Shown here in pieces: positions 33,670 through 64,000 of a DNA stretch of 64,000 nt. This DNA comes from Denitrobacterium detoxificans (lineage in GTDB: Bacteria > Actinomycetota > Coriobacteriia > Coriobacteriales > Eggerthellaceae): the NCBI RefSeq assembly GCF_015062615.1, contig NZ_SUUH01000005.1, positions 16,061-80,060 of the forward strand, given 5' to 3'. A program made the translations under genes and the position numbers. Position 1 is the stretch's first letter. The number at the start of each line of letters is the position of its first letter. The notes beneath the pieces are model-generated. The model ran no database searches, was not told where the DNA came from, and saw nothing but the letters and a program-made list of their open reading frames with translations.

Positions 33670-36141
33670 TTACGCGCCGTACCAGCCTATGCCCTCGTAG
33701 TTCCACCCGAGTTCGACGAGGTTGTTGGCTTCTGCCGCGCTCGTCGTGTAGTGGTGCGATCCGGTTTTGGCATTAGGGTTGTACAGGCGGTATAGGGGCG
33801 TCGTCTTATTTTCGTCGGAATACCAGCCTATGCCCTCGTAATTCCAGCCAAGGCTTACGAGCCAGTCCCGCTCCGATGCGCTCGCGGTGTAGTGGTGGTC
33901 TCCTCCGTTGGGGTTGTACAGGCGATAGACGGCGTTTCCGCTTTGGGGCGCTTGCCAGCCTATTCCTTCGTCCGTCCACCCCAGTTTCACGAGATGTGCC
34001 TGCTCTTCTGCGCTGGCAGTGTAGAAATGTTCGCCGGAATTGGGGTTGTACAGGCGATACATGGCAACGGTGCTCGTTGCGGAGCTCTGGTCGGAGTTCG
34101 TTTCCTCCGTGGTGCCGCCGGAGTTGCTTTCCCCGTCTGTCGCGTCTTGGCCCTGGGAGTCATTTCCGGTGCTTCCGGAGGACGTACCTTGGCTGGTGAC
34201 GCTCGCGAGCGTGTAGTTCGTGCCGCTCGCTAGCTCGGGTGATGAGTAGATGAGGTAGCTTGCGGAGCCCTTTGCCGTGTAGGTGCTCAATGGCGTGGAC
34301 GAATCATTCGCCGCATATATGCCAACGGTGTCGCCGGATGAAATACTCACGCTTCCCGAGCTCGTTCGTGGCGTGCTGCCCGAGGGCGTTTGCGCCGTTG
34401 CCGTTGCGTTGAGCGTGCTCGATTGGGTGCTGAGGGAAGAATCATCATCCGACGTGAAGGGCCTGAAGCCTCCGCCTGGAGTTCCCCCAGGGGTGCCGCC
34501 GGGAGTTCCGCCGCCGTTTCCGCCCCCGAACATCACGTAGGCTTGCGACCCGGACGTGGGCGTTACGGACATGCTGCTTCCGAATGCGGCAAGGGTACCG
34601 CCCGTTTGCGTCCAGCCATCGCTGTTCAGGTCGCCGTAATCGACTGCGCCGTTGTCGTTCGAACCTGCGTATACCTCGACGGTTCCTCCGCTCATGATGA
34701 TGCTTCCGTTGGAATCGAGCCCGTCGCCGCCAGACGCCCGGTTTCCCTCGTCATCGGTTCCCGTAGCCGTGGCGTTAACGAGGATGCTTCCTCCCTCTAT
34801 GGTGAGCAGGAAGGGGTATGCGTTGGAATTGCTTCCCAGCGTGGAATTGGCGGCGTTAATGCCATCGTCGCTGGTATATAGGTCGATGGCGCCCGAATAG
34901 ACGGACACGGTGGCCCCTTCGAGCCCTTCAAGCGCATAGCCTATTGTGATGGCGGGCTCTTCGGTTGCCTGGTTGGTTGACCCTATGACGAGGTCAACGT
35001 CGGCGTGAATGCCGTCATCATCGGAGGATGCGTTTATGGAGCCGCCCGAAATGGTTACCATGCCGCTTCCGTCGGACGCGATGGTGGTGGAGGTTCCGCT
35101 GGTGATTTCGGTGGCATTCGCGTGTATGGCGTCGTCTGCGCAATTGAGCGTGATGTCGCCATCGTTTATGGTAATCGCATGGTCGCTCTTCAGGCCCTTG
35201 GCCGATTGCGTGTCCGACGCGTCATCGGGGTCCGCGGGCAAGTCGTTTCCAACTTTGTTCGATCCACCGAACGTGGTTATGTCGATGTTTCCTCCTGTGA
35301 CGACGAGGTCTCCGGTGGCCTGAATGCCATCCCCGGTTGTGTCGCCTGTGCCCGTTTCTATGGAAATAGTGCCGCCGCTAATGGTAACGGTACCGTATGA
35401 TTCGCCGTCTACGCTGTTCAGGCCATTGTAGGTGTCGGCCTGAATGCCGTCTCCCGCGCTCTGGATATCTATGTCGCCGCCATTGATGGTTATGGTGCCG
35501 CGGCTGCTTGTATCCGTTTCGTCGGGCGCCGCCTTTATACCGTCGTTGCCCGCTTCTATGCTTATGGTGCCGCCGTTGATGACGACGCTGCCGTCGCTCG
35601 CAATGCCGTTGTTTGCGGCTTCGATGGCGAGGGAGAAATTGTTCTCCGCGTTGGTGTCGCCGCCAATCGTGACCGTTGCGTCCGTGGCTCCCTTGATGGC
35701 GTTTTTACCCGCACTTGTTGCGGTAAGCGTATTGTCGTTTTCGCTTTGTCCCACGATGGTGAGGGACGAGCCCGATTTCGCCTTGATTGCCGCACTGCCG
35801 GTAACGGTGTCGTTATTGGCGATAGTACTCGCTCCGTCTGTCACGATGGTAACCGATGCGTTTTTGCCAATCGTAATGGTGTCGGTTCCATCGGCGCTGG
35901 TAGCCAGCGAGAGATCGTCTAAGATGAGCGTGACCTCAAGCCCTTTGGCAATGTTGACGGTGCCTTCGCTGCACGAACCCGATAGGGTGTACGTTCCGTC
36001 CTCCGTGATTTCCAAAGAGGAGTTTTCTTCGGAAAACGTAAAGGCCGTGCTGCTCGAGTCGAGTGCAAGAGCGTAGGAAGGTGCAATGCCCAGCGCTAAT
36101 GCGCATGCGATTCCGAATGTGATGGGTGTCTTTGCACGCAT
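33670..36141 (-). CDS. secreted beta-helix (Cthe_2159-like carbohydrate-binding family) protein with three C-terminal DUF5648-like wall repeats
   Basis: Signal peptide MRAKTPITFGIACALALGIAPSYALA. Repeated ..GG.I.I.aGdDGI.A.. units, GGTPGGTPGGTPGG linker, three YRLYNPN..GW..EGIGW repeats. Confidence 0.85.
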   Translation of the reverse strand: MRAKTPITFGIACALALGIAPSYALALDSSSTAFTFSEENSSLEITEDGTYTLSGSCSEGTVNIAKGLEVTLILDDLSLATSADGTDTITIGKNASVTIVTDGASTIANNDTVTGSAAIKAKSGSSLTIVGQSENDNTLTATSAGKNAIKGATDATVTIGGDTNAENNFSLAIEAANNGIASDGSVVINGGTISIEAGNDGIKAAPDETDTSSRGTITINGGDIDIQSAGDGIQADTYNGLNSVDGESYGTVTISGGTISIETGTGDTTGDGIQATGDLVVTGGNIDITTFGGSNKVGNDLPADPDDASDTQSAKGLKSDHAITINDGDITLNCADDAIHANATEITSGTSTTIASDGSGMVTISGGSINASSDDDGIHADVDLVIGSTNQATEEPAITIGYALEGLEGATVSVYSGAIDLYTSDDGINAANSTLGSNSNAYPFLLTIEGGSILVNATATGTDDEGNRASGGDGLDSNGSIIMSGGTVEVYAGSNDNGAVDYGDLNSDGWTQTGGTLAAFGSSMSVTPTSGSQAYVMFGGGNGGGTPGGTPGGTPGGGFRPFTSDDDSSLSTQSSTLNATATAQTPSGSTPRTSSGSVSISSGDTVGIYAANDSSTPLSTYTAKGSASYLIYSSPELASGTNYTLASVTSQGTSSGSTGNDSQGQDATDGESNSGGTTEETNSDQSSATSTVAMYRLYNPNSGEHFYTASAEEQAHLVKLGWTDEGIGWQAPQSGNAVYRLYNPNGGDHHYTASASERDWLVSLGWNYEGIGWYSDENKTTPLYRLYNPNAKTGSHHYTTSAAEANNLVELGWNYEGIGWYGA

Positions 36142-36223: not shown

Positions 36224-38029
36224 CTATTCTTTGATCCAGGCGGTGAAGAGAGCGACGGCGCATGCTGCCACCAGGCCGAGGACGTCGGTGAACATGGGTG
36301 CGACCGACGATTGGCTGCTTGCCATCCATGCTGCCAGGCAGGTTCCTGCGGCAAGGATAAGACTGGCGATGATGGTGCCCGCCATGTACCAGGCGCGCGT
36401 CCCGCGCAGCGAGAACCCCGAAGCGGCAAGCGCCGCCGTAAGCCAGGTTGCGCCGATAATCCAGGTGGCGGGGTTGGAGAGCATGAGCCCAAGCCTTCCC
36501 AAGTACCCACCATCGATGCCCATCCAGAATGCAATGGGGTTCCAGAATGATAGGCTCGAGCTTCCGAGCGCGCCTAGGAATAGGGCACATGCGAAGCAGA
36601 AGATTGTCGTGGAGATGGCGTCTCGTATGCGCAGGTTCAACCCGCATACCAGAGGAGCAAGTGGGGCGCAGCCGATGGCTCCGCCTGTGGGTACGCATGC
36701 TGCGGAAGCACCTGCTTCCAGGATGTGAGAGCGTTGCCCCTCTTCGCGGGGCTCGCCCAAGCGAGCATGTCCGCTGATGGCCCACCATGCGATGGAGATG
36801 CCCACGAGGAGCATGCCCGCCCCCGTGGCGTTGCCCGCGATGAGCGCGCAGCCGAATATGATGGCGGCAACGGCAATGCCCACACTGGGCAATGCGGCCC
36901 CCAGAGCGATGGTGAGTGCGACGAGGCCCCAGAAAGGCGGGGCGGTCATGTCGCCAATGGCTGGCATGTTTGCGAATGCCGCAAAGCCAAGAAGGCCGGA
37001 GCCAATGCCCGACCAGGCGCGATATGCGATGCGGCGCGTGCGTTCCTGCAGGCGCTCGGCAAGGGGCAGGCTGGGTGTGGCGGGTTGCTTCGCTTCGCCC
37101 GTATCTTCGCAAGCGGCGTCTACGATGCTTGCGAGCTGCTTGTGGCCCGCGCGGGGCGAACCCAGGTGGGGGAGGAATTCCTCGGCGAATTCCTCCACGG
37201 AGTCGTAACGTTCGTCGCGGTCGGGGTCGAGCGCGTAGAAGAGCACGTCGTCTGCTTCAGGCGACAGTCCGTCGAGGCAGAGCGATGGCAGTACCAGCTC
37301 CGCTTCCTCGATGGCCGTTTGCGCGCGTTTCAAGTCGGGGGCAAAGAAGGGGTTTTCGCCCGCGATCATTTCGTACGTGAGCGCGGCAAGCGCCCATTCG
37401 TCGCAGCGTTCGTCGAGGGGCTCCAGCCTCATTTGCTCGAGCGGCATGTAGCCGATGGTCCCGCCACCTGCCTTCGAGAAGCCTTCTGCGTCGGAAAGTT
37501 TCGAGAGGCCGAAGTCGGCCACTTTTACTTGCCCCTGATGGTTGATGAGCACGTTGTCGGGCTTGATATCCAGGTGAAGCACCTGGTTTTCGTGGGCCGT
37601 CTGCAGCGCGTGAGAAACGTCTTGGAAGATGGCCGCCATGACGTCGGGCGTGAGGTCTTGCGGGAACTCGTCAAGAAGGCGCGTGAGCGTGATGCCGTCT
37701 ACGTACTCCATGATGAGGTAGGCGGTGCCGTTTTCGGCTTCGAAATCGATGATGCCCACGATGTTGGGGTCTTGAAGCATGGCTGCGGTGCGGGCTTCGT
37801 CGAGTCCGGGAATGTCGCTGGCGGAGATGGGCGATCCATCTGGGTCGAGCAGGGAGGAGGCATCGCCGTTTTCCGTGGCTGCCAGGATGCGCTCGTCGAT
37901 CTGCATGCTCTTCACGGCAACGCGGCGCTTGATGCGCGTATCGAAAGCAACTTGCACGGTACCGAACCCGCCTCGGCCAGCTTCGCCCAGGGGTTTGTAT
38001 CGGTTGAGTATGAGTTCGCCTTCGGCCAC
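36224..38029 (-). CDS. Ser/Thr protein kinase fused to a polytopic (about 8-10 TM) C-terminal membrane domain
   Basis: ORF trimmed to GTG 38029 after GAAGGA. GRGGFGTV, VAVK, HLDIKPDN and DFG motifs. The C-terminal 250 aa are almost entirely hydrophobic. Confidence 0.85.
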   Translation of the reverse strand: MAEGELILNRYKPLGEAGRGGFGTVQVAFDTRIKRRVAVKSMQIDERILAATENGDASSLLDPDGSPISASDIPGLDEARTAAMLQDPNIVGIIDFEAENGTAYLIMEYVDGITLTRLLDEFPQDLTPDVMAAIFQDVSHALQTAHENQVLHLDIKPDNVLINHQGQVKVADFGLSKLSDAEGFSKAGGGTIGYMPLEQMRLEPLDERCDEWALAALTYEMIAGENPFFAPDLKRAQTAIEEAELVLPSLCLDGLSPEADDVLFYALDPDRDERYDSVEEFAEEFLPHLGSPRAGHKQLASIVDAACEDTGEAKQPATPSLPLAERLQERTRRIAYRAWSGIGSGLLGFAAFANMPAIGDMTAPPFWGLVALTIALGAALPSVGIAVAAIIFGCALIAGNATGAGMLLVGISIAWWAISGHARLGEPREEGQRSHILEAGASAACVPTGGAIGCAPLAPLVCGLNLRIRDAISTTIFCFACALFLGALGSSSLSFWNPIAFWMGIDGGYLGRLGLMLSNPATWIIGATWLTAALAASGFSLRGTRAWYMAGTIIASLILAAGTCLAAWMASSQSSVAPMFTDVLGLVAACAVALFTAWIKE

Positions 38030-38252
38030 GTGGTTCCTTCGTTTGCGGTGCGTTTTAGTGGTGCATGCCAAGGCATGCGGGCTTTTCTTCGTGGTGTGGT
38101 CCACGATTTCGCCCGATAAACGCTGCGTTGGCGGCGAATCGTGCGAAAAATGTGTACCAGGCCATAATAACTTGTTTTTAGCGCTTGCCAAGGGCGACGG
38201 CGTACGCTAGTATTCTTTCCTGCCTGTTCGCGGCAAGCGAACGAAGCACCAT

Positions 38253-53164: not shown

Positions 53165-56100
53165 CTACAGCCCGTACCAGCCGATGCCCTCGTACTTCCA
53201 GCCGAGTTTGCGCAGCCCGTCGCGTTCGCTCGCGCTCGTCGTGTAGTGGTGCGAGCCGGACTTGGCGTTCGGGTTGTACAGGCGGTAGAGCGGCGTCGTC
53301 TTGTTGTCGTCGGAGTACCAGCCGATGCCCTCGTACTTCCAGCCAAGGCCCCTCAGCCAGTCGCGCTCCTCGGCGCTCATGGTGTAGTGGTGGTCACCAC
53401 CGTTGGGGTTGTACAGGCGGTACACGGGCGTGTTGCTCGTTGCGGGCGCCGTCCAGCCGATGCCCTCGTATTTCCACCCGAGCTTGCGCAGGCCGTCGCG
53501 CTCCTCGGCGCTGGCCGTGTAGAAGTGCTCGCCGCCGTTCGGGTTGTACAGGCGATACATGCTTTGCTTACTCGTGCCGCTGGAATCTACGATTTGGAAC
53601 GCAGCGACGCGCGAGCCCTTGTAATAGTGGCCGGTTGCAATGACGTATACCGTTGCGGTGCCAGGGTTGATATTGTTGACGTACTGCAGGGTGTAGTCGA
53701 CGTCCTTGCGCAGGGTTACGCCCTTCACGATGACCGAGGGGTTGGGCGTTACGGCCTTGCCCGTGTATGCCTGCGGGGAAACGACGTTGATGATCACGTC
53801 AGTTTCGGTGGTTAGATCCACAACGTTCGCGATGAAGACGGGGAAGTGGCCATTCACGTTGTTCGAGTCGAAATGGAAGGGCGTGCCCAGCGTGGTGTCG
53901 GCGAAGTCCACGCTCTGCATCACTTCGGACGTTTGTTTGGTGATGCCGTCCCCTGCCAGCCTTCCAGCCGCTTGCGTGCAGGAAAGCTCCAGGTAGTGGG
54001 TATTTTCGAAGGTTGCGTTCCCATTGGCAACGTCGCCGCAGATGGCGCCTGCCGCAGTTCCCGTAAGGTCTACTCCGTTGTACGTTACGAGCCCCGTGTT
54101 GTATGCGCGCTTTACGGTAAGCTGGCTCGTCGCCCAGCCCACCAGGCCGCCGGCATACGGTCCGTCGGCGGCAAGACCCGATACGGTAACGTATCCTGTG
54201 TTGTATGCACTTTCCACGCGTACGTTGTACCCGCAGCCTTCCAGGCCGCCTGCCATGCCGCGTGACGTGATGTTTCCACTGTTGTACGACGTCAGAAACT
54301 CGCTGCTGCTTGCGCAGGATTCGCCATTCGCACTGCCTGCAAAGCCCAGCAATCCGCCTACGCGCGTAGCGTTGGGCGCTTGGATGTTGCCGGTGTTGGC
54401 GCAGTCTTGGAACACGACGTGCGCGTTGGGGAGCGCGCGCCCCAACATGCCTCCCACGCCTTCGGTTTCCAGTCCGTCGGTGACGGAGCCCGATGTGAAG
54501 CAAGAATTGAACGTGAGCGAGCCTTCTTTCATGACGCCCACGAGTCCTCCCAGATCGGCCGCAGACGCGGAAACGGCTACGCTGCTACTGACGTTGTAGA
54601 ACGTCGTCTCTCCGCCGTTCACCGTCTCTGCAAGGGCAGGTCGCGACATGGTGCCGGCAAGCACGAGGTCTTTCACTTCCGTTTGCTCGTGTGACCCGGA
54701 AATGGCATTGAACAGGGGCTGCGTGGTGCCTGCATGCATGGTGATGGTGTGTCCGCCGCCATCGAAGCTTCCCGCAAAGGGCGACGCAATGCCAATGGAG
54801 GGCACAAGGGGCGAAGTGTCGGTGTTTACCAGGTCGAGGTCGGCGGTCAGCTTGTAATGCGCCGAGCCATAGGCGGGGAAGTCGTTTTCGATGCAGTACT
54901 GCATGTAGGCAAGTGCGCCTACGGAGTCGATGACGTAGGGGTCGTTTTCGGTGCCCGTGCTTGCGTTGGCGAACGAATCGGGGCCTGCGGCAACGGCAAA
55001 TTGAACTTGCATGCTGCCGCTGTAGTTGCCTCCGGGAACGGCTACCGCGTCAACGCTGCCAAGCGGTGCGGCGGTCTTCGTATTTCCGCTGTTCCAGTCC
55101 AGGGTGTAGTCGACGTTTTCCTGCAGCTGCTTGCCCGCGGCATTGGTAATGGTGATGGTGGGGCGCACCAGGTTGTTGCCGCCGAAGTTCCAGGTGCTGG
55201 TAGCGGTGTACGTGCAGTTGCTTGTGCCCAGGTTGGCTGGGTCGATGGTGAAAGCGTGCGGTCCGTTTTGCGTTCCCGCATAGGCGCCCGCACCCGTTAC
55301 GGTGAACGTTGCGGGGCTCGTGCTCGTGGTGACATTGGTGTTGTTGCTGCCCGTAACCGTGTAGTCGGAATCGGGATTGAGCTCGGTGCCGTTCAGCACG
55401 ACGCGGATGTCGGAAGGCAGAATTGCTTCGCCTGTATACGTTACCGTTTCGCTGTACGAGATAGTGGCGTCTTCCAGGTTGACCGAGGGCTCCTCCAGGC
55501 CCAGCTGCCAATAGAGCACGGGGTATCCGTAGTTGGGCTTTGAGCTTTCGTGGCCGTCGATGAAGTATGCCCCCAGTTTGCTTGCGCCCTGTCGCTTCAA
55601 ATCGTCGAACGAGAGGGGCAGGGCGTTTGATTGGCTAACGGTGGGTGCCACGAGTCCGCCGGTATCGGTTTCTCGCGTGCCTGCCCAGCCTGCGGCTGCA
55701 TCGCCGCGGAAGTAGCAGTTCCCAATGCGAATTTCGCTGCCTTCTTCGCCCACGCCTGCCAGGCCCACCATACCGCCTACGGAAGTGGATCCGTCGGCTT
55801 GGCTTTGCTTGCCCATGAGGCTTGCGCTATAGGTGTTCGTGATGGCCAGGCGGTATAGTCCGCCTTGCGCGCGTCCTACGATGCCTCCCAGGTACGCCGT
55901 TCCGCCTACGGGGGTTCCAATGACGGTGTATTCGCGATCGTTTTCCGCGGCGCTGAAGCAGTTGGAGATGGTCAGCTTGCAGCCGCTATTCGCGCCCACG
56001 AGGCCGCCGCCTGCGGCAGAGGCGGAAACGCTACCCGTGTTGCCACATGCGCTTATGGTTACCGTGGGTGGCGTGCTGGCGGATTCAGCTTCGCAGAGGC

Positions 56101-57013
56101 CTACGAGTCCGCCGGCGTTGCCAGCGTTTTCGCCCACGCTGCCCGCCCTAATGAGCCCCGTGTTGGTGCTTGCGGCGTTGAAGTCCAGGTAGTTGCGCGA
56201 TGCGTGCAGCGAGAGGTCGCAATCGAGCGCGTATCCCACCATGCCGCCTGCGGCCTTCATACCGCTTACGGGCCCGCAGGTTTCGCATCCGTCGATGGTG
56301 AGAGTCCCCGTCGCCTTGCCAACCAGGCCGCCAGCGATGCTGCTACTGCCGTTTGCTGTGGCTGCAACGGAACACGTGACGCCTTCGAACGTAACGTTGC
56401 CATCCGCAACGCCCAGCACGCCCGCGGCGATTTGTCCCACGCCTGTGGCCGTGGTGGTGCCCGAAAGGTCGAAATCCCTGAATGTGGCGTCGTACCCCGC
56501 TGCCGTGGCGCCGAAGAGCGACGCCATCTTGTATTGCAGCGTCATGTCGGTGATGCCAATTTGGTTGAGCTTGATGGAGTGCCCGTTGCCGTCGAAGGTG
56601 CCGCAGAAGTACGCGTAATCGACTACGCGTTCGCCTTCTTCGCCGATGGTCGTATGCTCGCCCCAGCCAATGGGTGACCAGGCGGTTTCTCCTGATGCGT
56701 CGATATTGGCGGTAAGCGCATAGTGGGCCGTCTGCGCGGCAGTGGGCGTGTACGTGCTGCCCGAGAGCTCTCCGGGCTTGTTCACCTCGCTCATCATGTA
56801 GCGCAGCTGGGCCACGTTGGCAATCTGATATGGATCGCTTGCCGTGCCCGTGCCCCCTGCATACGAGGTAGCAGGTTCGGTATCCGCAAAGGCGGATGCG
56901 GGCAGGAGAATCATCGCGACCGCGAAGAGGGCGCAGAGTAGAGCGCCCAGGCCCGCTTTGGAACGTGCCGTTTTCCGTGACTTCAGACTACCCAAGTGCG
57001 ACTGTACGTGCAT
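53165..57013 (-). CDS. giant wall-associated surface protein with GLUG-type repeats, Ig-like region and three C-terminal DUF5648-like repeats
   Basis: ATG 57013 after GGGGG (ATG 57025 is an alternative). Signal peptide ..ALLCALFAVAMILLPASAFA. Many GG(L/M)VG..N.G repeats. C-terminal YRLYNPNGGEHFYT..GWKYEGIGW x3. Confidence 0.88.
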   Translation of the reverse strand: MHVQSHLGSLKSRKTARSKAGLGALLCALFAVAMILLPASAFADTEPATSYAGGTGTASDPYQIANVAQLRYMMSEVNKPGELSGSTYTPTAAQTAHYALTANIDASGETAWSPIGWGEHTTIGEEGERVVDYAYFCGTFDGNGHSIKLNQIGITDMTLQYKMASLFGATAAGYDATFRDFDLSGTTTATGVGQIAAGVLGVADGNVTFEGVTCSVAATANGSSSIAGGLVGKATGTLTIDGCETCGPVSGMKAAGGMVGYALDCDLSLHASRNYLDFNAASTNTGLIRAGSVGENAGNAGGLVGLCEAESASTPPTVTISACGNTGSVSASAAGGGLVGANSGCKLTISNCFSAAENDREYTVIGTPVGGTAYLGGIVGRAQGGLYRLAITNTYSASLMGKQSQADGSTSVGGMVGLAGVGEEGSEIRIGNCYFRGDAAAGWAGTRETDTGGLVAPTVSQSNALPLSFDDLKRQGASKLGAYFIDGHESSKPNYGYPVLYWQLGLEEPSVNLEDATISYSETVTYTGEAILPSDIRVVLNGTELNPDSDYTVTGSNNTNVTTSTSPATFTVTGAGAYAGTQNGPHAFTIDPANLGTSNCTYTATSTWNFGGNNLVRPTITITNAAGKQLQENVDYTLDWNSGNTKTAAPLGSVDAVAVPGGNYSGSMQVQFAVAAGPDSFANASTGTENDPYVIDSVGALAYMQYCIENDFPAYGSAHYKLTADLDLVNTDTSPLVPSIGIASPFAGSFDGGGHTITMHAGTTQPLFNAISGSHEQTEVKDLVLAGTMSRPALAETVNGGETTFYNVSSSVAVSASAADLGGLVGVMKEGSLTFNSCFTSGSVTDGLETEGVGGMLGRALPNAHVVFQDCANTGNIQAPNATRVGGLLGFAGSANGESCASSSEFLTSYNSGNITSRGMAGGLEGCGYNVRVESAYNTGYVTVSGLAADGPYAGGLVGWATSQLTVKRAYNTGLVTYNGVDLTGTAAGAICGDVANGNATFENTHYLELSCTQAAGRLAGDGITKQTSEVMQSVDFADTTLGTPFHFDSNNVNGHFPVFIANVVDLTTETDVIINVVSPQAYTGKAVTPNPSVIVKGVTLRKDVDYTLQYVNNINPGTATVYVIATGHYYKGSRVAAFQIVDSSGTSKQSMYRLYNPNGGEHFYTASAEERDGLRKLGWKYEGIGWTAPATSNTPVYRLYNPNGGDHHYTMSAEERDWLRGLGWKYEGIGWYSDDNKTTPLYRLYNPNAKSGSHHYTTSASERDGLRKLGWKYEGIGWYGL

Positions 57014-57167
57014 AACGACCCCCATCGCCGCGCGTGAAATGTAATCTCAATTCTACCATTTTCTCAGTTCAGGTGCACTAAACAGCTGGTTTTCGTCTTC
57101 GCGACAGCTTGTTATTCAGGCTGTTTTAAGGCGTGGTTTGTAGAGTCGGGTACAGTCAACGAGAGGA

Positions 57168-58073
57168 ATGACGATGACTGACGCAAGTAAACCAAGCCCG
57201 AAGCCAATTGCCATCTTCGAGCGCACGGAAAAGAAGTACGTGATCACGCGTCGTCAGTTCGACCTGTTCATGCAGGCGATTGGCGATAAGCTCCGTGACG
57301 ACCAGTACGCGCGCAGCACGATTTCGAGCCTGTATTTCGACACGATGGAAGACACGCTCATCAATCGTTCCATGGAAAAGCCCTTCTACAAGGAGAAGCT
57401 GCGCATTCGGTCGTACGGTCCCGCAGCAGCGAGCGACCTGGTGTTCGTAGAGCTCAAGAAGAAGTTCGACGGCATCGTGTACAAGCGTCGCGTGCAGCTT
57501 CCGCGCGACTTGGCCATCGCCTATATGCAAGGTGATGTGTCGTACCAGGAGGCCGTGCGCGTGGCGGCAAGTTTTGGCGCGCTGGATGCCGAGGAGGCGC
57601 TGTCCGCCAGCAAGTTGCAGACGGTGCGCGAAATCGACGCCACCATTGCGCGCTACCCGAAGCTGCGTCCGCGCATCATGGTAGTGGTGAACCGCCTGTC
57701 CCTGAAGAGTATCGACGGTAGCAACATTCGCTTCACCTTCGACTTCAACGCGCGGTGGCGTCATCAGAACCTGACGTTTGACCAGGGTGAAGGCGGTCAT
57801 CTCATCTATGGCGAAGATGAGCGCAACATCATCCTGGAAATCAAATGCCAGAAGGCGTACCCCCTGTGGCTGGTGCATGCGCTGTCCAACTTGCGGATGT
57901 ATCCGCAGCCCTGTTCGAAGATTGCGGGCGCCTATACGGCCCTTGTGCCGGTGGCCCAGGTGGGTGGCAAGCGCGTTCCCATCTACCAGAAGCAGCCGCT
58001 TGAACGCATTCAGACGAAAGACCGATACGGCGCGCCTGTCGCGCGTCGCGTGAAAGGAGCTCATTGTGCTTGA
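57168..58073 (+). CDS. VTC-domain (polyphosphate-polymerase-like, triphosphate-tunnel) protein
   Basis: FERTEKKYVI, SLYFDT, PFYKEKLRIRSYG and VFVELKKKFDGIVYKRR are recalled as signatures of bacterial VTC-domain proteins. ATG 57174 has better RBS spacing. Confidence 0.8.
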   Translation: MTMTDASKPSPKPIAIFERTEKKYVITRRQFDLFMQAIGDKLRDDQYARSTISSLYFDTMEDTLINRSMEKPFYKEKLRIRSYGPAAASDLVFVELKKKFDGIVYKRRVQLPRDLAIAYMQGDVSYQEAVRVAASFGALDAEEALSASKLQTVREIDATIARYPKLRPRIMVVVNRLSLKSIDGSNIRFTFDFNARWRHQNLTFDQGEGGHLIYGEDERNIILEIKCQKAYPLWLVHALSNLRMYPQPCSKIAGAYTALVPVAQVGGKRVPIYQKQPLERIQTKDRYGAPVARRVKGAHCA

Positions 58074-58770
58074 TTCCCTGTTCACCAGCGTGCTAACCGC
58101 TAGCACCGATTCGACGGCTGCGGCAATGTCCGGCGTCGACTTCTTCCTTTGCTCGGCCGTCTCGCTCGTGCTTGGCGTGGCGATCGCGTTCATCTACATG
58201 TTCAAGCACTCATATTCGAAGAGCTTCGTTGTGACGCTCGCTCTGCTGCCCATCATCGTGCAGATGGTAATCAGCCTGGTGAACGGCAACATTGGTGCCG
58301 GCATTGCCGTCATGGGCGTGTTCAATTTGGTGCGCTTCCGCAGTATTCCGGGTAGCGCAAAGGACATCGGTTCGGTGTTCCTGGCCATGGCAGTGGGCCT
58401 GGCTACGGGCATGGGCTACCTGGCGCTGGCGTGCGTGTTCACGGTCATCGTGGCCATCGCGAACATCGTATTCGTGCTTTCCCCGCTGGGCAGCCAGATG
58501 GGCGAACGCGTGGAGCGCGCCCTTACCGTTACCATCCCTGAGGACATCGACTATACGAATCTCTTTGACGACCTGTTTGAACGCTTTACTTCCAAGCACG
58601 AACTCGTCAATACCCGTACCACCAACATGGGCAGCCTGTACAAGTTGGAATACCTTGTCACGCTGAAGGATGCGCGCGCAGAGAAGACGCTGCTCGATGC
58701 CATCCGCACGCGTAACGGCAATCTGACCGTCCAATGCGGTAGGCCCACCATGTTTCAGGAAAGGCTCTAA
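58066..58770 (+). CDS. DUF4956-like membrane protein (4 TM plus soluble C-terminal domain)
   Basis: GTG 58066, 6 nt after AAAGGAG, overlapping the VTC gene by 8 nt. NLVRFRS motif after TM3; MgtC-like architecture. Confidence 0.75.
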   Translation: MLDSLFTSVLTASTDSTAAAMSGVDFFLCSAVSLVLGVAIAFIYMFKHSYSKSFVVTLALLPIIVQMVISLVNGNIGAGIAVMGVFNLVRFRSIPGSAKDIGSVFLAMAVGLATGMGYLALACVFTVIVAIANIVFVLSPLGSQMGERVERALTVTIPEDIDYTNLFDDLFERFTSKHELVNTRTTNMGSLYKLEYLVTLKDARAEKTLLDAIRTRNGNLTVQCGRPTMFQERL

Positions 58771-58772
58771 CA

Positions 58773-60989
58773 ATGACTACACCCAAACACGCTCGCTCTG
58801 GGTATTCGATACCGAATACCAGTGCGCAGCCGCAGGACCGCTCGAGCGGCGCGTGGCATGAGCACGAATCGGCGGGTACGTACCCCACGGTGGATTCCCC
58901 GCAGTTTCATGCGATGGGCGCAAGCCGCCGGTTTGCAAACCGTACGGCGGCTGCGCGGAAGCGCACGGTGCGCGATCGTCTGAACGCGCTTGCGCACCCC
59001 GTGCGCGCCATGGCCGTGGCCGGTCTCACGTTGGCACTGGTCGGCGTGGTGGGATGCTCCGCTCTCTCGTCGCTTGCGTCGAGCAGCGATTCCGATTCTT
59101 CGACGAGCACGACCACCACGACGGAAAGCACGGCAACGCATGCTAAGGGAGCCGTTGCCGCCGATACCGCGTCGATGACGTTCGAGTATTCCAATCGCGA
59201 TAGCGATGCCAGCTACGATGCGTCCAGCGCGACCACCATTACGCTGAGCGATTCTTCCGCCACGGTAAGCGGGTCGGGCGCCACGGCCGATGGCTCCACG
59301 GTAACCATCACCACTGCTGGTACGTACGTTATCTCGGGTAGCTCAAGCGACGCCCAGATCGTGGTGGCTGCGGCTGACGACGAAAAGGTGCAGCTGGTAC
59401 TTGATGGCGTGACCATGAGTTGCTCCAGCGGGCCGTGCATTAACGTGCAAACCGCTGACAAGGTGTTCATCACGCTCGATAGCGGTTCCACCAACACGCT
59501 TTCCGATGGCAGCGGCTGGACTCTGACGGGTGAGGATGGCGAACCGAACGCGACCATTTACAGCGAATGCGACCTTACGATCAACGGCAGCGGATCGCTT
59601 ACGGTGAATGCCACGGTGAACCATGGCATCTCCAGCAAGAACGACCTTACCATCACGGGTGGCACGATTGACGTTACCTCGGTGGGCGATGGCTTGCATG
59701 GCAAGGATAGCGTGCAGATTTCCGATGGCGACATCACTATCGATTCCCAGTCCGATGGCATCAAGTCCACGGAAACGGACGAAGATGACAAGGGCTATGT
59801 CTCCATCGATGGCGGCACGATTGCCATCACCGCGGTTGACGATGGTATTCAGGCGAGCAAGCTCGTGCGCATTGCCGGTGGCGAGCTGGAGATTGACGTC
59901 GAGGGCGATGCCATTCATGGCGACTACGACGTGCAGATTGCGGATGGCGAGCTGGTCATCAACGCAGGCGACGACGGCGTGCACGCCGAGTACAACCTGA
60001 GTATCGAGGGTGGCCAGACTACGGTTGAGACGAGCGTCGAGGGCCTGGAAGGCCAGTGCGTGGAAATTTCGGGCGGCGAGAACCTGGTGTACTCCAGCGA
60101 CGACGGCATCAATGCCGCGGCTGTCACTACCGATACCGTGACGACCGATGTTGCCGCCACGAACGCAACGAGCACAGCCGCAACGTCGGATAGCACCCAG
60201 ACGACGGGTGAGGCCCCCCAGGCGCCGAGCGGCGACGCAGCGGGTGGCACGGCTCCTTCGGGTGACATGCCGAGCGGCGAAGCCCCTAGTGGCGAGCTTC
60301 CCAGCGATGCGGGTGGTACGCCCCCCGACGCTTCCGGCTCTACCGGTGGCGGCATGGCTGGCGGAAATGCCGGAGGCGGCATGGCTGGCGCGTCGAGCGC
60401 CTGCAACATCACGATTTCCGGTGGCTCCACCACGCTTGTCTGCACTGCCGATGGCGACAGCATGGACTCCAACGGCAATATCGAAATGACCGCGGGCGAG
60501 CTGTATATCTCGGGCGTATCGGGTGGTGATAATGGCGCTATCGACTATGAGTCCACGGCTACGATTACGGGCGGAACGGCTTTCGTCGTGGGCAACTCGG
60601 GCATGGACGGTGCGTTCACCAGCGATAGTACGCAGCCCTTCATTGCGGTAAGCGCCAGCGGGCAGGCCGGCTCTACGGTTACCGTGGAAGATGCCTCGGG
60701 CAATGTGGTGGCTAGCTATACCTCGGTCAATGGATTTAGCTATGTGGTTGTTTCCAACGCGAGCCTGGTGGATGGCCAAGAGTACACCATCTTGGTGAAT
60801 GGCCAGGAAGCTACCACGGCAACGGCCAGTACCGAGGCTGCTACGACGACCATGGGGTCTGGTGGCGGCATGGCTGGCGGTAATGGCGGCGGCGGATTTG
60901 GCGGTCGCGGTGGTGGCGACATGGCCAATGGCGATGCTTCTTCGGGGCAAAGCCAGCAGTCCGGCACGACGCAGACGACCACCGTATAG
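58773..60989 (+). CDS. Cthe_2159-like beta-helix (carbohydrate-binding family) lipoprotein with Gly-rich tail
   Basis: Starts 2 nt after the previous stop. Lipobox-like LALVGVVGCS. Repeats ..DGI.S/DDGIQA/GDAIHG/DDGVHA/SDDGINA..DSMDSNG. Tail GGGMAGGNGGGGFGGRGGG. Confidence 0.85.
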   Translation: MTTPKHARSGYSIPNTSAQPQDRSSGAWHEHESAGTYPTVDSPQFHAMGASRRFANRTAAARKRTVRDRLNALAHPVRAMAVAGLTLALVGVVGCSALSSLASSSDSDSSTSTTTTTESTATHAKGAVAADTASMTFEYSNRDSDASYDASSATTITLSDSSATVSGSGATADGSTVTITTAGTYVISGSSSDAQIVVAAADDEKVQLVLDGVTMSCSSGPCINVQTADKVFITLDSGSTNTLSDGSGWTLTGEDGEPNATIYSECDLTINGSGSLTVNATVNHGISSKNDLTITGGTIDVTSVGDGLHGKDSVQISDGDITIDSQSDGIKSTETDEDDKGYVSIDGGTIAITAVDDGIQASKLVRIAGGELEIDVEGDAIHGDYDVQIADGELVINAGDDGVHAEYNLSIEGGQTTVETSVEGLEGQCVEISGGENLVYSSDDGINAAAVTTDTVTTDVAATNATSTAATSDSTQTTGEAPQAPSGDAAGGTAPSGDMPSGEAPSGELPSDAGGTPPDASGSTGGGMAGGNAGGGMAGASSACNITISGGSTTLVCTADGDSMDSNGNIEMTAGELYISGVSGGDNGAIDYESTATITGGTAFVVGNSGMDGAFTSDSTQPFIAVSASGQAGSTVTVEDASGNVVASYTSVNGFSYVVVSNASLVDGQEYTILVNGQEATTATASTEAATTTMGSGGGMAGGNGGGGFGGRGGGDMANGDASSGQSQQSGTTQTTTV

Positions 60990-61035
60990 CTCTTCTTGCG
61001 TAATGCAGGGCGGGGAGGAGCGCCCCGCATGCTTG

Positions 61036-61067
61036 GGCGGTTGACCTTGGGGTCAACCGCCTTTTTG
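61036..61067 (+). terminator. strong intrinsic terminator of the VTC operon
   Basis: GGCGGTTGACC-TTGG-GGTCAACCGCC followed by TTTTT. Confidence 0.9.
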
Positions 61068-61166: not shown

Positions 61167-62105
61167 ATGCCAAGCATTACTCGTGATCAGGTGAAAGTCC
61201 CTGCCGACGTTATGCCTGAGGTCCGTGAAACCTACATCGACAACTATCTGAAGGCAACCCGCAACACCGGTCGCCTCATGCTGTTCGCCTGCGACCAGAA
61301 GATGGAGCACCTGAACGGCGACTTCTACGGCGAGGGCATCGATCCCTCCGATAACGATCCCGAGCATCTGTTCCAGATTGGCCAGGAAGGCGTCATTGGC
61401 GTTCTGGCTGGTCAGCGTGGCCTTATTGCTCGCTATGCTCCCGATTACCCGGAAATCAACTTCCTGGTGAAGATGAACTCCAAGACGAACCTGGTGAAGA
61501 CGGCTCAGGACGATCCGTATTCTCCCCAGCTGCACGACCTCGAGGCCGTTCTGGCCATGCGCGAGGCTGGCGTCAACATCGTGGGCCTTGGCTACACCAT
61601 CTACCTGGGCAGCGAATATGAATCCACCATGCTGGCCGAGGCTGGCGAACTCATCGCTCAGGCACATGCAAACGGCCTGATCGTGGTCCTGTGGATCTAT
61701 CCTCGCGGCAAGGCCGTTGCCGACGAGAAGGCCCCCGCACTCATCGCTGGTGCTGCTGGTGCCGCCCTGTGCCTGGGTGCCGACTTCGTGAAGGTCAACC
61801 CTCCGAAAGACACCGAGGAAGCTACCAGCGCCCAGAGCCTGGCCATCGCTTCCCAGGCTGCTGGCCGCACCGGCCTGGTGTGCGCTGGCGGTTCCAAGGC
61901 CGACGCCAAGGAATTCCTGTCCAACCTGTACGATCAGATTCATGTGGGCGGTGCCTGCGGTAACGCCACGGGCCGCAACATCCACATGCGTTCGCTGGAA
62001 GAGGCCGTGCGCCTCACGAAGGCCATCAGCGCCATCACGCTGGCCGACTACGAGGTCGACGACGCTCTGGCCGTTTACAACGGCGAAGCCGACTTCGCGC
62101 TGTAG
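61167..62105 (+). CDS. class I fructose-bisphosphate aldolase family (DhnA/FbaB-type)
   Basis: AAGGAGG RBS. DQKMEH.. and GADFVKVNPP (Schiff-base Lys region); 312 aa. Confidence 0.8.
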   Translation: MPSITRDQVKVPADVMPEVRETYIDNYLKATRNTGRLMLFACDQKMEHLNGDFYGEGIDPSDNDPEHLFQIGQEGVIGVLAGQRGLIARYAPDYPEINFLVKMNSKTNLVKTAQDDPYSPQLHDLEAVLAMREAGVNIVGLGYTIYLGSEYESTMLAEAGELIAQAHANGLIVVLWIYPRGKAVADEKAPALIAGAAGAALCLGADFVKVNPPKDTEEATSAQSLAIASQAAGRTGLVCAGGSKADAKEFLSNLYDQIHVGGACGNATGRNIHMRSLEEAVRLTKAISAITLADYEVDDALAVYNGEADFAL

Positions 62106-62124
62106 TTCAGCTTCATAGCGTATG

Positions 62125-62160
62125 GGGGGCAGCTAGCTCATGCTAGCTGCCCCTTCTTGT
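62125..62160 (+). terminator. intrinsic terminator after the aldolase gene
   Basis: GGGGCAGCTAGC-TCAT-GCTAGCTGCCCC followed by TTCTTGT. Confidence 0.85.
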
Positions 62161-62225: not shown

Positions 62226-62912
62226 ATGCAAATACTGGTTGTAGAAGACGACATCCGCCTCGCTGATGCCCTTGCCACTATCCTGCGTAACAATGACTAT
62301 CAGGTCGACGTGGTGAACGATGGCGAAGAGGGCCTGTATTACGCCCAGAGCGGCATCTACGACTGCATCGTGCTCGACGTGATGCTTCCCCATAAGGACG
62401 GGTTCGAGATCTCGCAGCAGCTGCGTCGCGAGAAGAATCCCGTGCCCATTCTCATGCTCACCGCCCGTAGCGCTATCGCCGATAAGGTGGGTGGCCTGGA
62501 CAGCGGCGCCGACGATTACATGACCAAGCCCTTTGCCCCCGTGGAACTCCTTGCGCGCATTCGTTCGCTTACGCGCAGGCAGGGCGATGTGGTGTTCGAG
62601 TCGCTGGAGTTCGGCAACGTGAAGCTCGATCTGGATACGTGCGAGCTTTCGTGTGGCGCGAAGAGCATTCGCCTGTCGCAGAAGGAATTCGCCATCATGA
62701 AAATCCTGCTGGCAAATCCCTCGCGCGTAACTTCGAAGGAAACGCTCATAACCAAGGTATGGGGCTACGATTCCTCTGCGGAAGATAACAATGTGGAAGC
62801 GTACATTTCCTTTCTGCGCAAGAAGCTCGATTTCGTAGGTTCGTCCGTGCATATCGAAACGCTACGCAAGCTTGGCTATCGCCTAAGGGACGACAATGGT
62901 GAAGACGCATAA
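62226..62912 (+). CDS. OmpR-family response regulator
   Basis: Receiver domain MQILVVEDD..DVMLPHKDG plus winged-helix C-terminus ..LRKLGYRL. Confidence 0.95.
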   Translation: MQILVVEDDIRLADALATILRNNDYQVDVVNDGEEGLYYAQSGIYDCIVLDVMLPHKDGFEISQQLRREKNPVPILMLTARSAIADKVGGLDSGADDYMTKPFAPVELLARIRSLTRRQGDVVFESLEFGNVKLDLDTCELSCGAKSIRLSQKEFAIMKILLANPSRVTSKETLITKVWGYDSSAEDNNVEAYISFLRKKLDFVGSSVHIETLRKLGYRLRDDNGEDA

Positions 62913-64000
62913 GAAACGCAAGGGGAACACGGCGTTCGAAGGCTTTCGCCGGAAGTTCGTCGTTACGAACATGGCGTTCGTACTCGTCGTTTTGGTGGCG
63001 GTGCTTTCTGCCGTGGGCGTGGCCAATTATTCGCAGCGTGTAAGCGAAGTGTACGATTCGTTGCAGCATCGCGTGGGCATGGATGTAGCGCAATCGAAGG
63101 CTTCGAACGCGGGTGGCGACGAAGTGAATTGGGGGAGCGTACCCCCTGCGTCCACTACTCCACTCTCTGGGTCGGATGAATCTATTTCCGCAGGAAATGC
63201 GGGGGAGGGTACCCCCTCTGAAGCGAATGCTGCAAATTCTTCCGAAGCGGAATCGGGCCAGAGCGAACAAGCACCCAATGCTGCGGAGGGTGATGCGTCC
63301 CAGCAACCTAGCGGGGATGGTATCGACGGTGCCCAGATGGGCCGCGACGGCATAGGCAGCCAGATGGTGGCAACGTCCTCGTTTTCCGTTGACGCCGATA
63401 GTGGCGAGATAACCGTTCTCTCCGATACGCTTGGCATGGATTCCGACGTGCTTGCCTCGGCTGCTTCCGTTGCGCAAGACGCCATTGCTGAGTCGGGCGA
63501 ATCCATGGTCCAGGGGCATGCCGATGGTCTGGGGTACTACTACCGCATCGAAAAGACCGAATCGGGGTACATGCTTGCCTTTGCGTCCGATACGTACGTA
63601 AGCCAGGGAACGCTTTCTCTGCTGGGTCCCTTCCTGCTTGCGGGCTTGGGTGCCTTGGCGGCCTTCTTCGTTGTGAGCGTGCTGCTTTCCAAGTGGGCGG
63701 TGCGCCCTGTGGAGCGTGCGTGGCGTCAGCAACAGCAGTTCATTGCCGATGCCAGCCACGAGCTGAAGACTCCGCTTACCGTGATTATCGCCAACGATTC
63801 CATTCTTGCCTCCCAGCCCGATGCCACGGTGGCGTCTCAGATGCAGTGGATCGAAAGCACGGAAACCGAAGCGCGCCTCATGCAGGGCCTGGTAAACGAC
63901 ATGCTTTATTTGGCCCAGATGGAAGACGGGGAACGAGAGCATGTGCTCAGTCGCTTGGATTTCAGCGATGTGGTGCAAAATGTCGCCCTACAATTCGAGA
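62896..64000 (+). CDS. sensor histidine kinase (partial, runs off right edge)
   Basis: Own translation from ATG 62896 (17-nt overlap with the RR gene): TM1, about 190-aa Ser/Ala/Glu/Gly-rich extracytoplasmic region, TM2, H-box ADASHELKTPLT. No stop before the window end. Confidence 0.88.
   Translation, partial: MVKTHKKRKGNTAFEGFRRKFVVTNMAFVLVVLVAVLSAVGVANYSQRVSEVYDSLQHRVGMDVAQSKASNAGGDEVNWGSVPPASTTPLSGSDESISAGNAGEGTPSEANAANSSEAESGQSEQAPNAAEGDASQQPSGDGIDGAQMGRDGIGSQMVATSSFSVDADSGEITVLSDTLGMDSDVLASAASVAQDAIAESGESMVQGHADGLGYYYRIEKTESGYMLAFASDTYVSQGTLSLLGPFLLAGLGALAAFFVVSVLLSKWAVRPVERAWRQQQQFIADASHELKTPLTVIIANDSILASQPDATVASQMQWIESTETEARLMQGLVNDMLYLAQMEDGEREHVLSRLDFSDVVQNVALQFE

Follow-up and report, generated by a model that had tools for sequence, protein, structure and literature searches.

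Bacterial surfaces and culture media have been reported to contain polyphosphate, and to our knowledge no bacterial route for its export is known. The closest described system to the one considered here is the eukaryotic VTC complex, composed of Vtc4 with Vtc1, Vtc2, and Vtc3 (3G3Q, 7YTJ, and 8I6V). Reviews published from 2023 to 2026 list PPK1 and PPK2 as the prokaryotic polyphosphate synthases and VTC as the eukaryotic one. In a 64,000-nucleotide stretch of bacterial DNA, hereafter called the window, a three-gene operon (g1, g2, and g3) was found to combine a soluble VTC-type enzyme, a DUF4956 membrane protein, and an acidic lipoprotein of the Cthe_2159 family. The sequence of this region is essentially that of Denitrobacterium detoxificans (Coriobacteriia), with g2 and g1 being 100% and 98% identical to NCBI proteins of the species. 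Judged by its predicted domains, the operon with its linked sensor pair is a split bacterial VTC system that lacks an SPX domain and has an unrelated membrane partner and a two-component control of its own.

Related bacterial gene sets were already printed, with no function assigned to them. A set of cotH, VTC ("poly-phosphate polymerase", "PPP"), DUF4956, and DUF4832 genes accompanies Gram-positive pel loci as an accessory set (bioRxiv 10.1101/768473), and VTC, "tubulin-like" (DUF4956), and CotH genes are found in NELoc-2 of Clostridium perfringens (PMC2879425). Both sets share with the window the VTC and DUF4956 core pair joined by an extracytoplasmic partner. Unlike them, the partner in the window is a Cthe_2159 lipoprotein instead of CotH or DUF4832, no pel locus lies in the window, and a dedicated OmpR-type sensor pair is attached. 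The first-pass annotation, made from the letters of the window alone, had presented the gene set as one without a demonstrated function. This stands, as a literature search for bacterial VTC, DUF4956, or the trio gave no functional study, and DUF4956 appeared in the literature searched only in incidental transcriptome-table listings. Genes annotated as DUF4956 are on record in S. mutans (SMU_1946) and B. thetaiotaomicron (BT3498). The novelty of the set is narrower than had been supposed, since the association of VTC, DUF4956, and CotH was in print in the two studies above. The operon is not a categorically new entity, because databases and print already contain its domain families and part of the association.

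Organization and conservation of the operon

The operon and its boundaries are laid out as follows, with the genes taken from the open reading frame (ORF) list and Pfam:

57026–57167, no strand: divergent intergenic (promoter) region of 142 bp between the wall-protein gene and g1
57168–58073, plus strand: g1, soluble VTC-type triphosphate-tunnel enzyme and candidate polyphosphate polymerase, 301 aa
58066–58770, plus strand: g2, DUF4956 membrane protein, 234 aa
58773–60989, plus strand: g3, acidic Cthe_2159 lipoprotein, 738 aa
61035–61067, plus strand: intrinsic-terminator-like hairpin closing the three-gene operon (stem 61035–61062, T tract as tail)

The three co-directional genes are packed as the first-pass annotation had described, with an 8-nt overlap of g1 and g2 (58066–58073) and a 2-nt gap between g2 and g3 (58771–58772). 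The single strong terminator also held up: between g1 and the next gene, no other strong hairpin accompanies this one, whose 12-bp stem includes 8 G-C pairs and is followed by a T tract. Likewise, the 142 bp upstream of g1 separate it from the giant wall-protein gene on the minus strand, consistent with the divergent promoter region that had been proposed, and the motifs quoted earlier (FERTEKKYVI, PFYKEKLRIRSYG, VFVELKKKFDGIVYKRR, and NLVRFRS) are all present in the translations. In profile hidden Markov model (HMM) searches, the suggested VTC, DUF4956, and Cthe_2159 assignments were all above the Pfam cut-offs, and NCBIfam holds no model for g1, g2, or g3. An anti-phage defence system was dismissed as a candidate, with zero PADLOC matches for the three genes.

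The true start of g1 is probably the second ATG at 57174, because the NCBI protein is 299 aa long and the position of an AGGA-like ribosome-binding site fits. A promoter scan found no sigma-70 consensus promoter upstream of g1. In the intergenic region 5' of g1, a direct repeat ACAGCTGGTT / ACAGCTTGTT at 57082–57091 and 57104–57113 (spacing 22 bp) could be a binding site for the OmpR-type regulator of the module, and two copies this short could also have arisen by chance.

To place the operon among its relatives, one genome per GTDB species was scanned, which gave at least 586 species with a relative; the 80 best loci, representing the clade nearest to the query, were retained, and HMMs built for the purpose were searched against all six-frame ORFs of these loci. 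DUF4956 was present in all 80 and lay directly 3' of VTC on the same strand in 78. The junction of the two genes was an overlap of exactly 8 nt in 36 of 79 cases (the 78 species loci plus the window), with crude start calls. Cthe_2159 flanked the pair in 59 of the 80 loci, directly downstream in 57 and divergently upstream in 2; downstream sequence of at least 1.5 kb, enough for this gene, was available in about 69 loci. Seven progressively distant homologues of g1 likewise displayed the order VTC-DUF4956-Cthe_2159 in Coriobacteriia and Lachnospiraceae, often with a response regulator and kinase alongside. Moreover, the pairwise-identity matrices of the three families correlate (r 0.62–0.70, Mantel p 0.001).

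Clostridia make up most of the carriers; Bacilli and Coriobacteriia are fewer, and isolated loci come from a Bacteroides metagenome-assembled genome (MAG) and a Sphaerochaetaceae (spirochaete) MAG. The gene-neighbourhood survey thus extended the trio beyond its own lineage to Clostridia, Bacilli, and Coriobacteriia, a point the first-pass annotation had left to a check. Recurrence in 80 other species makes a chance arrangement very improbable; the feature is real and much wider than one lineage. No sixth conserved gene was found when 612 neighbouring ORFs were clustered, the largest family, present in 12 loci, being a generic ABC ATPase. Since the flanks vary by locus, the module acts as a self-contained unit.

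Some loci depart from this layout. A Methanomassiliicoccaceae genome (L086, 8940–10711), the sole archaeal locus in the survey, carries VTC and DUF4956 without Cthe_2159, the DUF4956 gene being split and divergently upstream, and a close VTC homologue stands alone in a Thermoplasmata MAG (L007, 8001–8741). The VTC genes of these gut or host-associated archaea were probably acquired horizontally from Firmicutes. A decayed module is seen in L003 (8001–9512), where VTC is intact, DUF4956 is broken into pieces of 135 aa and 90 aa, and Cthe_2159 is missing, with the same flanking genes as in the intact locus L001.

The VTC-type enzyme

g1 matched the Pfam family VTC (PF09359) at 2.2e-32 (112.9 bits against a cut-off of 23) over profile positions 2–231 of 235, and Pfam detected in it the VTC domain only, without an SPX domain and without the C-terminal three-helix membrane domain. 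An AlphaFold (AF2) model built from a 39-sequence alignment reached a mean predicted local distance difference test (pLDDT) value of 86.7 and displayed the eight-strand tunnel order. When this model was compared with the PDB by Foldseek, the top 13 matches were all Vtc4, Vtc3, or Vtc2 (E 9e-14 to 8e-11); the Vtc4 catalytic domains (3G3R/3G3Q) came first, with E 9e-14 to 1e-12 and a template-modelling score of ~0.6, and Vtc3 and Vtc2 followed. CYTH cyclases and triphosphatases appeared only at 1e-8 or weaker.

At the sequence level, a pairwise phmmer search of g1 against the PDB gave a marginal Vtc4 match (E 0.36), and a profile of 39 sequences reached Vtc4 at 5e-13 with coverage of the N-terminal two thirds only. 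Searching with a profile restricted to the last 80 residues gave no relevant match; for this reason, fungal Vtc4 fragments were retrieved and a profile-profile alignment was run, in which hhalign joined the g1 family with fungal Vtc4 at a probability of 98% (E 1.7e-13, 244 aligned columns). In Vtc4, the triphosphate ligands are K200, R264, R266, K281, R361, K458, S457, and Y359, the Mn ligand is E426, and K458 is the one residue replaced in the inactive Vtc2/3 according to cryo-electron microscopy of the VTC complex (bioRxiv 10.1101/2023.01.27.525886). The profile search paired the N-terminal residues of g1 and Vtc4 as R19/R196, K23/K200, R79/R264, R81/R266, K97/K281, and R176/R361, and hhalign paired the C-terminal ones as E224/E426 and K226/K428 (ILEIK with VLEVK) and S250/S457 and K251/K458 (PCSKI with KFSKF). 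K23, R79, R81, K97, R176, E224, S250, and K251 were invariant or at least 90% conserved in the 39 bacterial homologues. g1 therefore retains the Mn-binding Glu and seven of the eight triphosphate-contacting residues, the equivalent of K458 among them. The earlier claim of a VTC-type enzyme can accordingly be sharpened, as both the Foldseek ranking and the residue alignment place g1 with Vtc4 rather than with generic CYTH proteins. Its active site is Vtc4-like and apparently competent, from which polymerase chemistry may be inferred.

g1 has in common with the eukaryotic complex the tunnel fold and Pfam family, the triphosphate-binding Lys/Arg set, the Mn-binding Glu, and the Vtc4-specific Lys, and in both systems a small membrane protein of several helices is the partner of the enzyme. 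Unlike the eukaryotic complex, the bacterial system has no SPX domain and carries its catalytic and membrane parts on separate genes, and no relation could be detected between the three-helix Vtc1-type domain and DUF4956, whose model shows five helices plus an ACT-like domain. The bacterial enzyme also differs from Vtc4 at two active-site positions that count against a polymerase: Vtc4 Y359, a triphosphate contact lost in g1, is replaced by V174 in a column that varies across the bacterial family, and the family has an invariant Glu (E21) where Vtc4 carries Thr198. In the ExExK motif of hydrolytic tunnel enzymes, we take E21 to occupy the second of the acidic positions, so that g1 may yet act as a hydrolase.

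Among the prokaryotic tunnel enzymes that have been characterised, hydrolases and cyclases predominate, and the next-best structural matches of g1 are of this kind. g1 might then be a tunnel-fold hydrolase or transferase (a tripolyphosphatase, a polyphosphatase, or an enzyme with another triphosphate substrate), and the module would degrade or sense a phosphorylated compound at the membrane; E21 would restore one acidic position of ExExK in such an enzyme. We regard this as quite unlikely. Vtc4 is a far closer match to g1 (1e-13) than any hydrolase-type tunnel enzyme is (1e-8), g1 retains the Vtc4-specific Lys whose loss marks the inactive paralogues, and the first acidic position of ExExK in g1 is Arg, as in Vtc4. 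A Vtc4-type polymerase is the preferred reading of g1 in what follows.

The acidic lipoprotein and its glycan-related alternatives

g3 matched the Pfam family Cthe_2159 (PF14262) at 2.9e-86 (289 bits against a cut-off of 25.8). Its order is a lipobox (VVGC), a Ser/Thr linker, the Cthe_2159 beta-helix (residues ~173–423), a Pro/Gly/Ser linker, a second conserved domain, and a Gly-rich tail. The beta-helix aligned with the crystal structure of Cthe_2159 from Clostridium thermocellum (4PEU/4PHB) over ~225 residues (168–393 with 4PEU, 1.7e-41). Pfam, 4PEU, and the lipobox all agree with the earlier description of g3 as a 738-aa Cthe_2159-type lipoprotein with a Gly-rich tail. In contrast to the Clostridium thermocellum protein, g3 is predicted to be a lipoprotein, has a second C-terminal domain with the motif GDxxDxNG, long low-complexity linkers, and a Gly-rich tail, and belongs to a VTC operon. 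The lipobox Cys is Cys95 (59055–59057), in a column 92% conserved in 57 module-linked proteins, which makes g3 a predicted lipoprotein. The start of g3 is uncertain and may be an alternative ATG at 58914 (M48), because orthologues have short signal peptides and the ORF in the window carries ~47 extra non-conserved residues; the lipobox is retained either way.

The module-linked Cthe_2159 proteins are all strongly acidic, with computed isoelectric points (pI) of at most ~4.7, and g3 of the window contains 1.7% Lys and Arg vs 13.5% Asp and Glu. K289 is the sole well-conserved basic residue (95% among the 57 module-linked proteins), and no Lys or Arg is invariant across seven aligned beta-helix sequences. 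Several Asp, Asn, and His columns are conserved alongside the GDxxDxNG motif of the C-terminal domain (residues 561–568), which shows 100% conservation. The first-pass annotation had cast the beta-helix as a binder of polyanions or polysaccharides, and the polyanion part of the proposal is weakened: the acidity of g3 and all its orthologues disfavours direct binding of polyphosphate. Any polyphosphate contact would therefore need bridging cations, and cation-bridged binding, or a cation- or glycan-binding role, fits the composition of g3 better. With its Ca-site-like motifs, g3 resembles a surface scaffold for cations (Ca-type) more than it does a polyanion binder or a beta-elimination lyase.

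The extracytoplasmic position is not always occupied by Cthe_2159. In L022 (10505–13594) and L058 (5932–8376), a CotH kinase protein takes the partner position without Cthe_2159, and these CotH proteins have lamin-tail, Fn3-associated, or chitobiase C-terminal domains of extracellular type. This suggests that the extracytoplasmic partners of VTC-DUF4956 are interchangeable, and CotH as an alternative partner suggests an extracytoplasmic destination.

Such partners also bear on a role in surface-glycan modification, in which a phosphate polymer or phosphate would be put on an exopolysaccharide or wall polymer, or would crosslink a cationic one, with the beta-helix or CotH as the glycan-binding or transfer part. 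Pfam names Cthe_2159, with its founding structure 4PEU, a carbohydrate-binding beta-helix, and the VTC/DUF4956/CotH set adjoins pel loci in streptococci, clostridia, and bifidobacteria (bioRxiv 10.1101/768473). In Anaerosporobacter faecicola (L006, 11458–13957), the trio is directly followed by a GT2/GtrA-type glycosyltransferase and an NAGPA-type phosphodiester glycosidase, which hints at a phospho-glycan connection in that lineage. Nevertheless, no glycan-synthesis family was conserved as a neighbour in the 80 loci, and basic residues of the beta-helix are as scarce as described above, K289 being the only conserved one. Glycan modification is in our view very doubtful, and a polyphosphate-making module with an acidic surface protein is preferred to it.

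The linked two-component system

Downstream of the trio, the window contains the following features:

61167–62105, plus strand: DeoC-type aldolase gene between the trio and the response regulator (NCBIfam NF005321, 490 bits)
62124–62155: second terminator, 3' of the aldolase gene
62226–62912, plus strand: OmpR-family response regulator (Pfam Response_reg and Trans_reg_C)
62896–64000, plus strand: sensor histidine kinase, cut by the window end (HisKA)

The OmpR-type regulator and the HisKA kinase running to the window end were both found where the first-pass annotation had noted them. An OmpR-type regulator and/or kinase lies within 1.5 kb of the module in 43 of the 80 loci, in 25 upstream on the same strand, in 12 divergent, and in 6 downstream, the last class being that of the window. 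Within 2.5 kb of the module, 40 regulators were counted where the outer flanks of the same loci predict 3.2, an enrichment of ~12-fold (Poisson P ~1e-29). The module-linked kinases of other species, to which the comparison was confined as the window kinase is cut by the window end, contain an extracytoplasmic sensor domain of ~130 aa for which there is no Pfam model; in 39 of 43 loci, ranging from Firmicutes to Coriobacteriia, these domains are homologous to one another. Given this shared sensor domain, the sensor pair is orthologous and inherited along with the trio, so that five genes (kinase, regulator, VTC, DUF4956, and Cthe_2159) make up the module, where the earlier annotation had claimed only the nearness of a two-component system.

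A PhoR/PhoB identity of the sensor pair was considered and rejected. The regulator of the window scored 190.9 against the NCBIfam PhoB model (cut-off 296), with all NCBIfam equivalogs below cut-off, and the module-linked kinase of L018 scored 172.7 against PhoR (cut-off 334). By these scores, the sensor pair is a generic OmpR-family system with a private sensor domain. Eukaryotic VTC is regulated by inositol pyrophosphates, and the bacterial module would use a two-component system instead. The kinase of the window has two transmembrane segments around an acidic low-complexity extracytoplasmic loop of ~200 aa (rich in Ser, Ala, Glu, Asp, and Gly), followed by HisKA. This loop is unlike the compact 130-aa sensor domain of most orthologues.

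The DUF4956 membrane protein

g2 matched DUF4956 (PF16316) at 7.8e-18 (65.2 bits against a cut-off of 30.6), and all 73 aligned relatives match as well; the family comprises 3449 clusters at 50% identity with a uniform length of ~225 aa. g2 had been described as a protein with four transmembrane helices and a soluble C-domain. Its AF2 model (pLDDT 90.5) confirmed the soluble domain and gave five helices instead (residues 23–45, 52–71, 76–93, 98–115, and 119–138), followed by an ACT/ferredoxin-like domain at residues ~150–225 in the order beta-alpha-beta-beta-alpha-beta. A conserved FxLxRFRS motif occupies residues 86–93 at the end of helix 3, and the conserved residues of the soluble domain are P158, E159, D211, R214, N217, and N219. 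According to the positive-inside rule, the Lys-rich loop 46–52, the RFRS loop, and the C-terminal domain would be cytoplasmic, with g1 within reach. DUF4956 is the most conserved of the trio (mean identity 51% vs 44% for VTC and 37% for Cthe_2159).

A membrane conduit was the role first proposed for this protein, and it found no support in the fold search. The g2 model had no significant whole-protein match in the PDB, its membrane part matched nothing, and its C-terminal domain had weak ACT/ferredoxin-like matches to IlvN, RelA-ACT, and CutA (E ~1e-2). The Vtc1 and Vtc4 membrane domains were not among the matches, though 7YTJ, 8I6V, and 9UMG were in the PDB library, and a Vtc1-like channel was thus ruled out at the level of detectable similarity; the conduit is therefore purely inferential. 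Instead, MgtC (PF02308) was matched by 26 of the 73 DUF4956 members, with a best E of 1.2e-4, all below the Pfam threshold and g2 itself giving none. Based on these recurrent profile matches and on the modelled architecture, DUF4956 is probably a distant MgtC-like protein and not a homologue of the VTC channel. As in the MgtC/SapB/YhiD family, its modelled N-terminal part is a membrane domain of several helices, to which a small cytoplasmic domain of ACT-like fold is joined; unlike that family, it has the RFRS motif, which is specific to DUF4956, and the matches stay sub-threshold throughout. MgtC-family proteins are regarded as regulators, not transporters, and we know of none that pairs with a tunnel enzyme.

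These features lend themselves to an explanation without export, in which g1 would make cytoplasmic polyphosphate as a membrane-anchored polymerase, DUF4956 would be an MgtC-like anchor or regulator with a metabolite-sensing ACT-like domain, and g3 would only be co-regulated (by cation, phosphate, or envelope stress) and never touch the polymer. Besides the MgtC matches, the shared architecture, and the missing channel similarity, the intact catalytic residues of g1 suit this explanation, and the acidic g3 and the acidic loop of the window kinase fit cation sensing or binding. On the other hand, it leaves the near-constant extracytoplasmic partner (Cthe_2159 or CotH) and the top conservation of the membrane protein unexplained, and the invariant RFR motif would be needless in a simple anchor. 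We consider it somewhat unlikely, and it is the main rival to a module that delivers its polymer to the envelope, with non-polymerase chemistry and glycan modification as lesser ones.

Two further observations concern the DUF4956 family. Nine members gave weak matches to a prokaryotic STING model, and the DUF4956 protein of D. detoxificans is named "cell division protein FtsZ" by one source, which looks like a misannotation.

Proposed pathway

On the established domain identities, catalytic-residue conservation, operon coupling, five-gene co-inheritance, and acidic lipoprotein nature of g3, a pathway can be drawn in which polymerase activity, a g1-g2 complex, translocation, and contact of g3 with polyphosphate are presumed. 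An extracytoplasmic signal would be sensed by the two-component system, which would switch on the three-gene operon. Translational coupling would supply g1 and g2 in fixed proportion for a membrane-bound complex, and g1, as an active Vtc4-type enzyme, would polymerise the gamma-phosphate of ATP to polyphosphate at the inner membrane face. A DUF4956 oligomer would hold g1 on the membrane, taking up the chain at the RFR motif on its cytoplasmic side and gating the activity through its ACT-like domain. The polyphosphate chain would then be handed to or across the membrane, and outside, the acidic, Ca-site-rich g3 would retain or organise the polymer through bridging divalent cations.

The near-obligate extracytoplasmic partner and the high conservation of DUF4956 favour this sensor-controlled envelope module over its rivals; its standing is weakened by the acidity of g3 and by the missing channel signature. 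Further points speak against it in addition to those raised at g1, g2, and g3. In the window, the aldolase gene and two terminators separate the sensor pair from the trio. The percentages of the survey apply to the clade nearest to the query, not to all bacterial VTC, and no experiment on any bacterial VTC protein was found in the literature searched. Rare fused VTC-DUF4956 ORFs (P0315 and P0388) were discarded as evidence of a complex since they have truncated domains and are likely assembly or frameshift artefacts; fusions therefore give no support to a physical g1-g2 complex. Taken together, a module in which DUF4956 holds a Vtc4-type polymerase, the polymer goes to or across the membrane, and an acidic lipoprotein handles it outside is tentatively proposed, as a possible rather than a probable explanation.

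Neighbouring genes

Three further genes of the window are related to the module by position or domain content:

53165–57025, minus strand: giant wall protein divergent from g1, 1286 aa, DUF5648 C-terminus
33670–36141, minus strand: paralogous Cthe_2159 and DUF5648 protein, 30% identical to g3
36224–38191, minus strand: Ser/Thr protein kinase adjoining the paralogue, 655 aa

In the giant secreted protein, Gly/Ala-rich segments of beta-helix-like character are repeated, and DUF5648 repeats (YRLYNPN...HHYT) occur three times at the C-terminus, with no Pfam assignment besides DUF5648. C-terminal repeats of the same wall-binding type are present in the paralogue, whose place beside a Ser/Thr kinase had been correctly noted in the first-pass annotation. 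A DeoC/LacD-type aldolase gene also stands beside the module in a related Coriobacteriia locus (L004/L005, 11730–12668), there on the opposite strand, and is not a conserved neighbour in Firmicutes.

Biological significance

If g1 were a hydrolase, or DUF4956 only a regulator, the finding would shrink to a family-annotation problem of moderate interest. In its most far-reaching form, many Gram-positive gut anaerobes would possess a third, PPK-independent synthase of VTC type, whose DUF4956 partner exports polyphosphate during synthesis, with an acidic Ca-binding lipoprotein or CotH using the polymer at the surface under a dedicated envelope sensor; we hold this form to be unlikely. Many of the carriers are gut commensals, and related sets occur in a pathogenicity-associated locus of C. 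perfringens and next to biofilm pel loci. With an intact Vtc4-like active site, a membrane protein, and a surface protein combined in one conserved bacterial operon, the question of export becomes directly testable. The operon may represent a third bacterial route to polyphosphate, possibly directed to the surface, and it bears on the origin of the eukaryotic VTC enzyme. If the export reading is true, the module would be the first bacterial polyphosphate export machine, and the eukaryotic VTC complex would have in it an evolutionary counterpart or its source.

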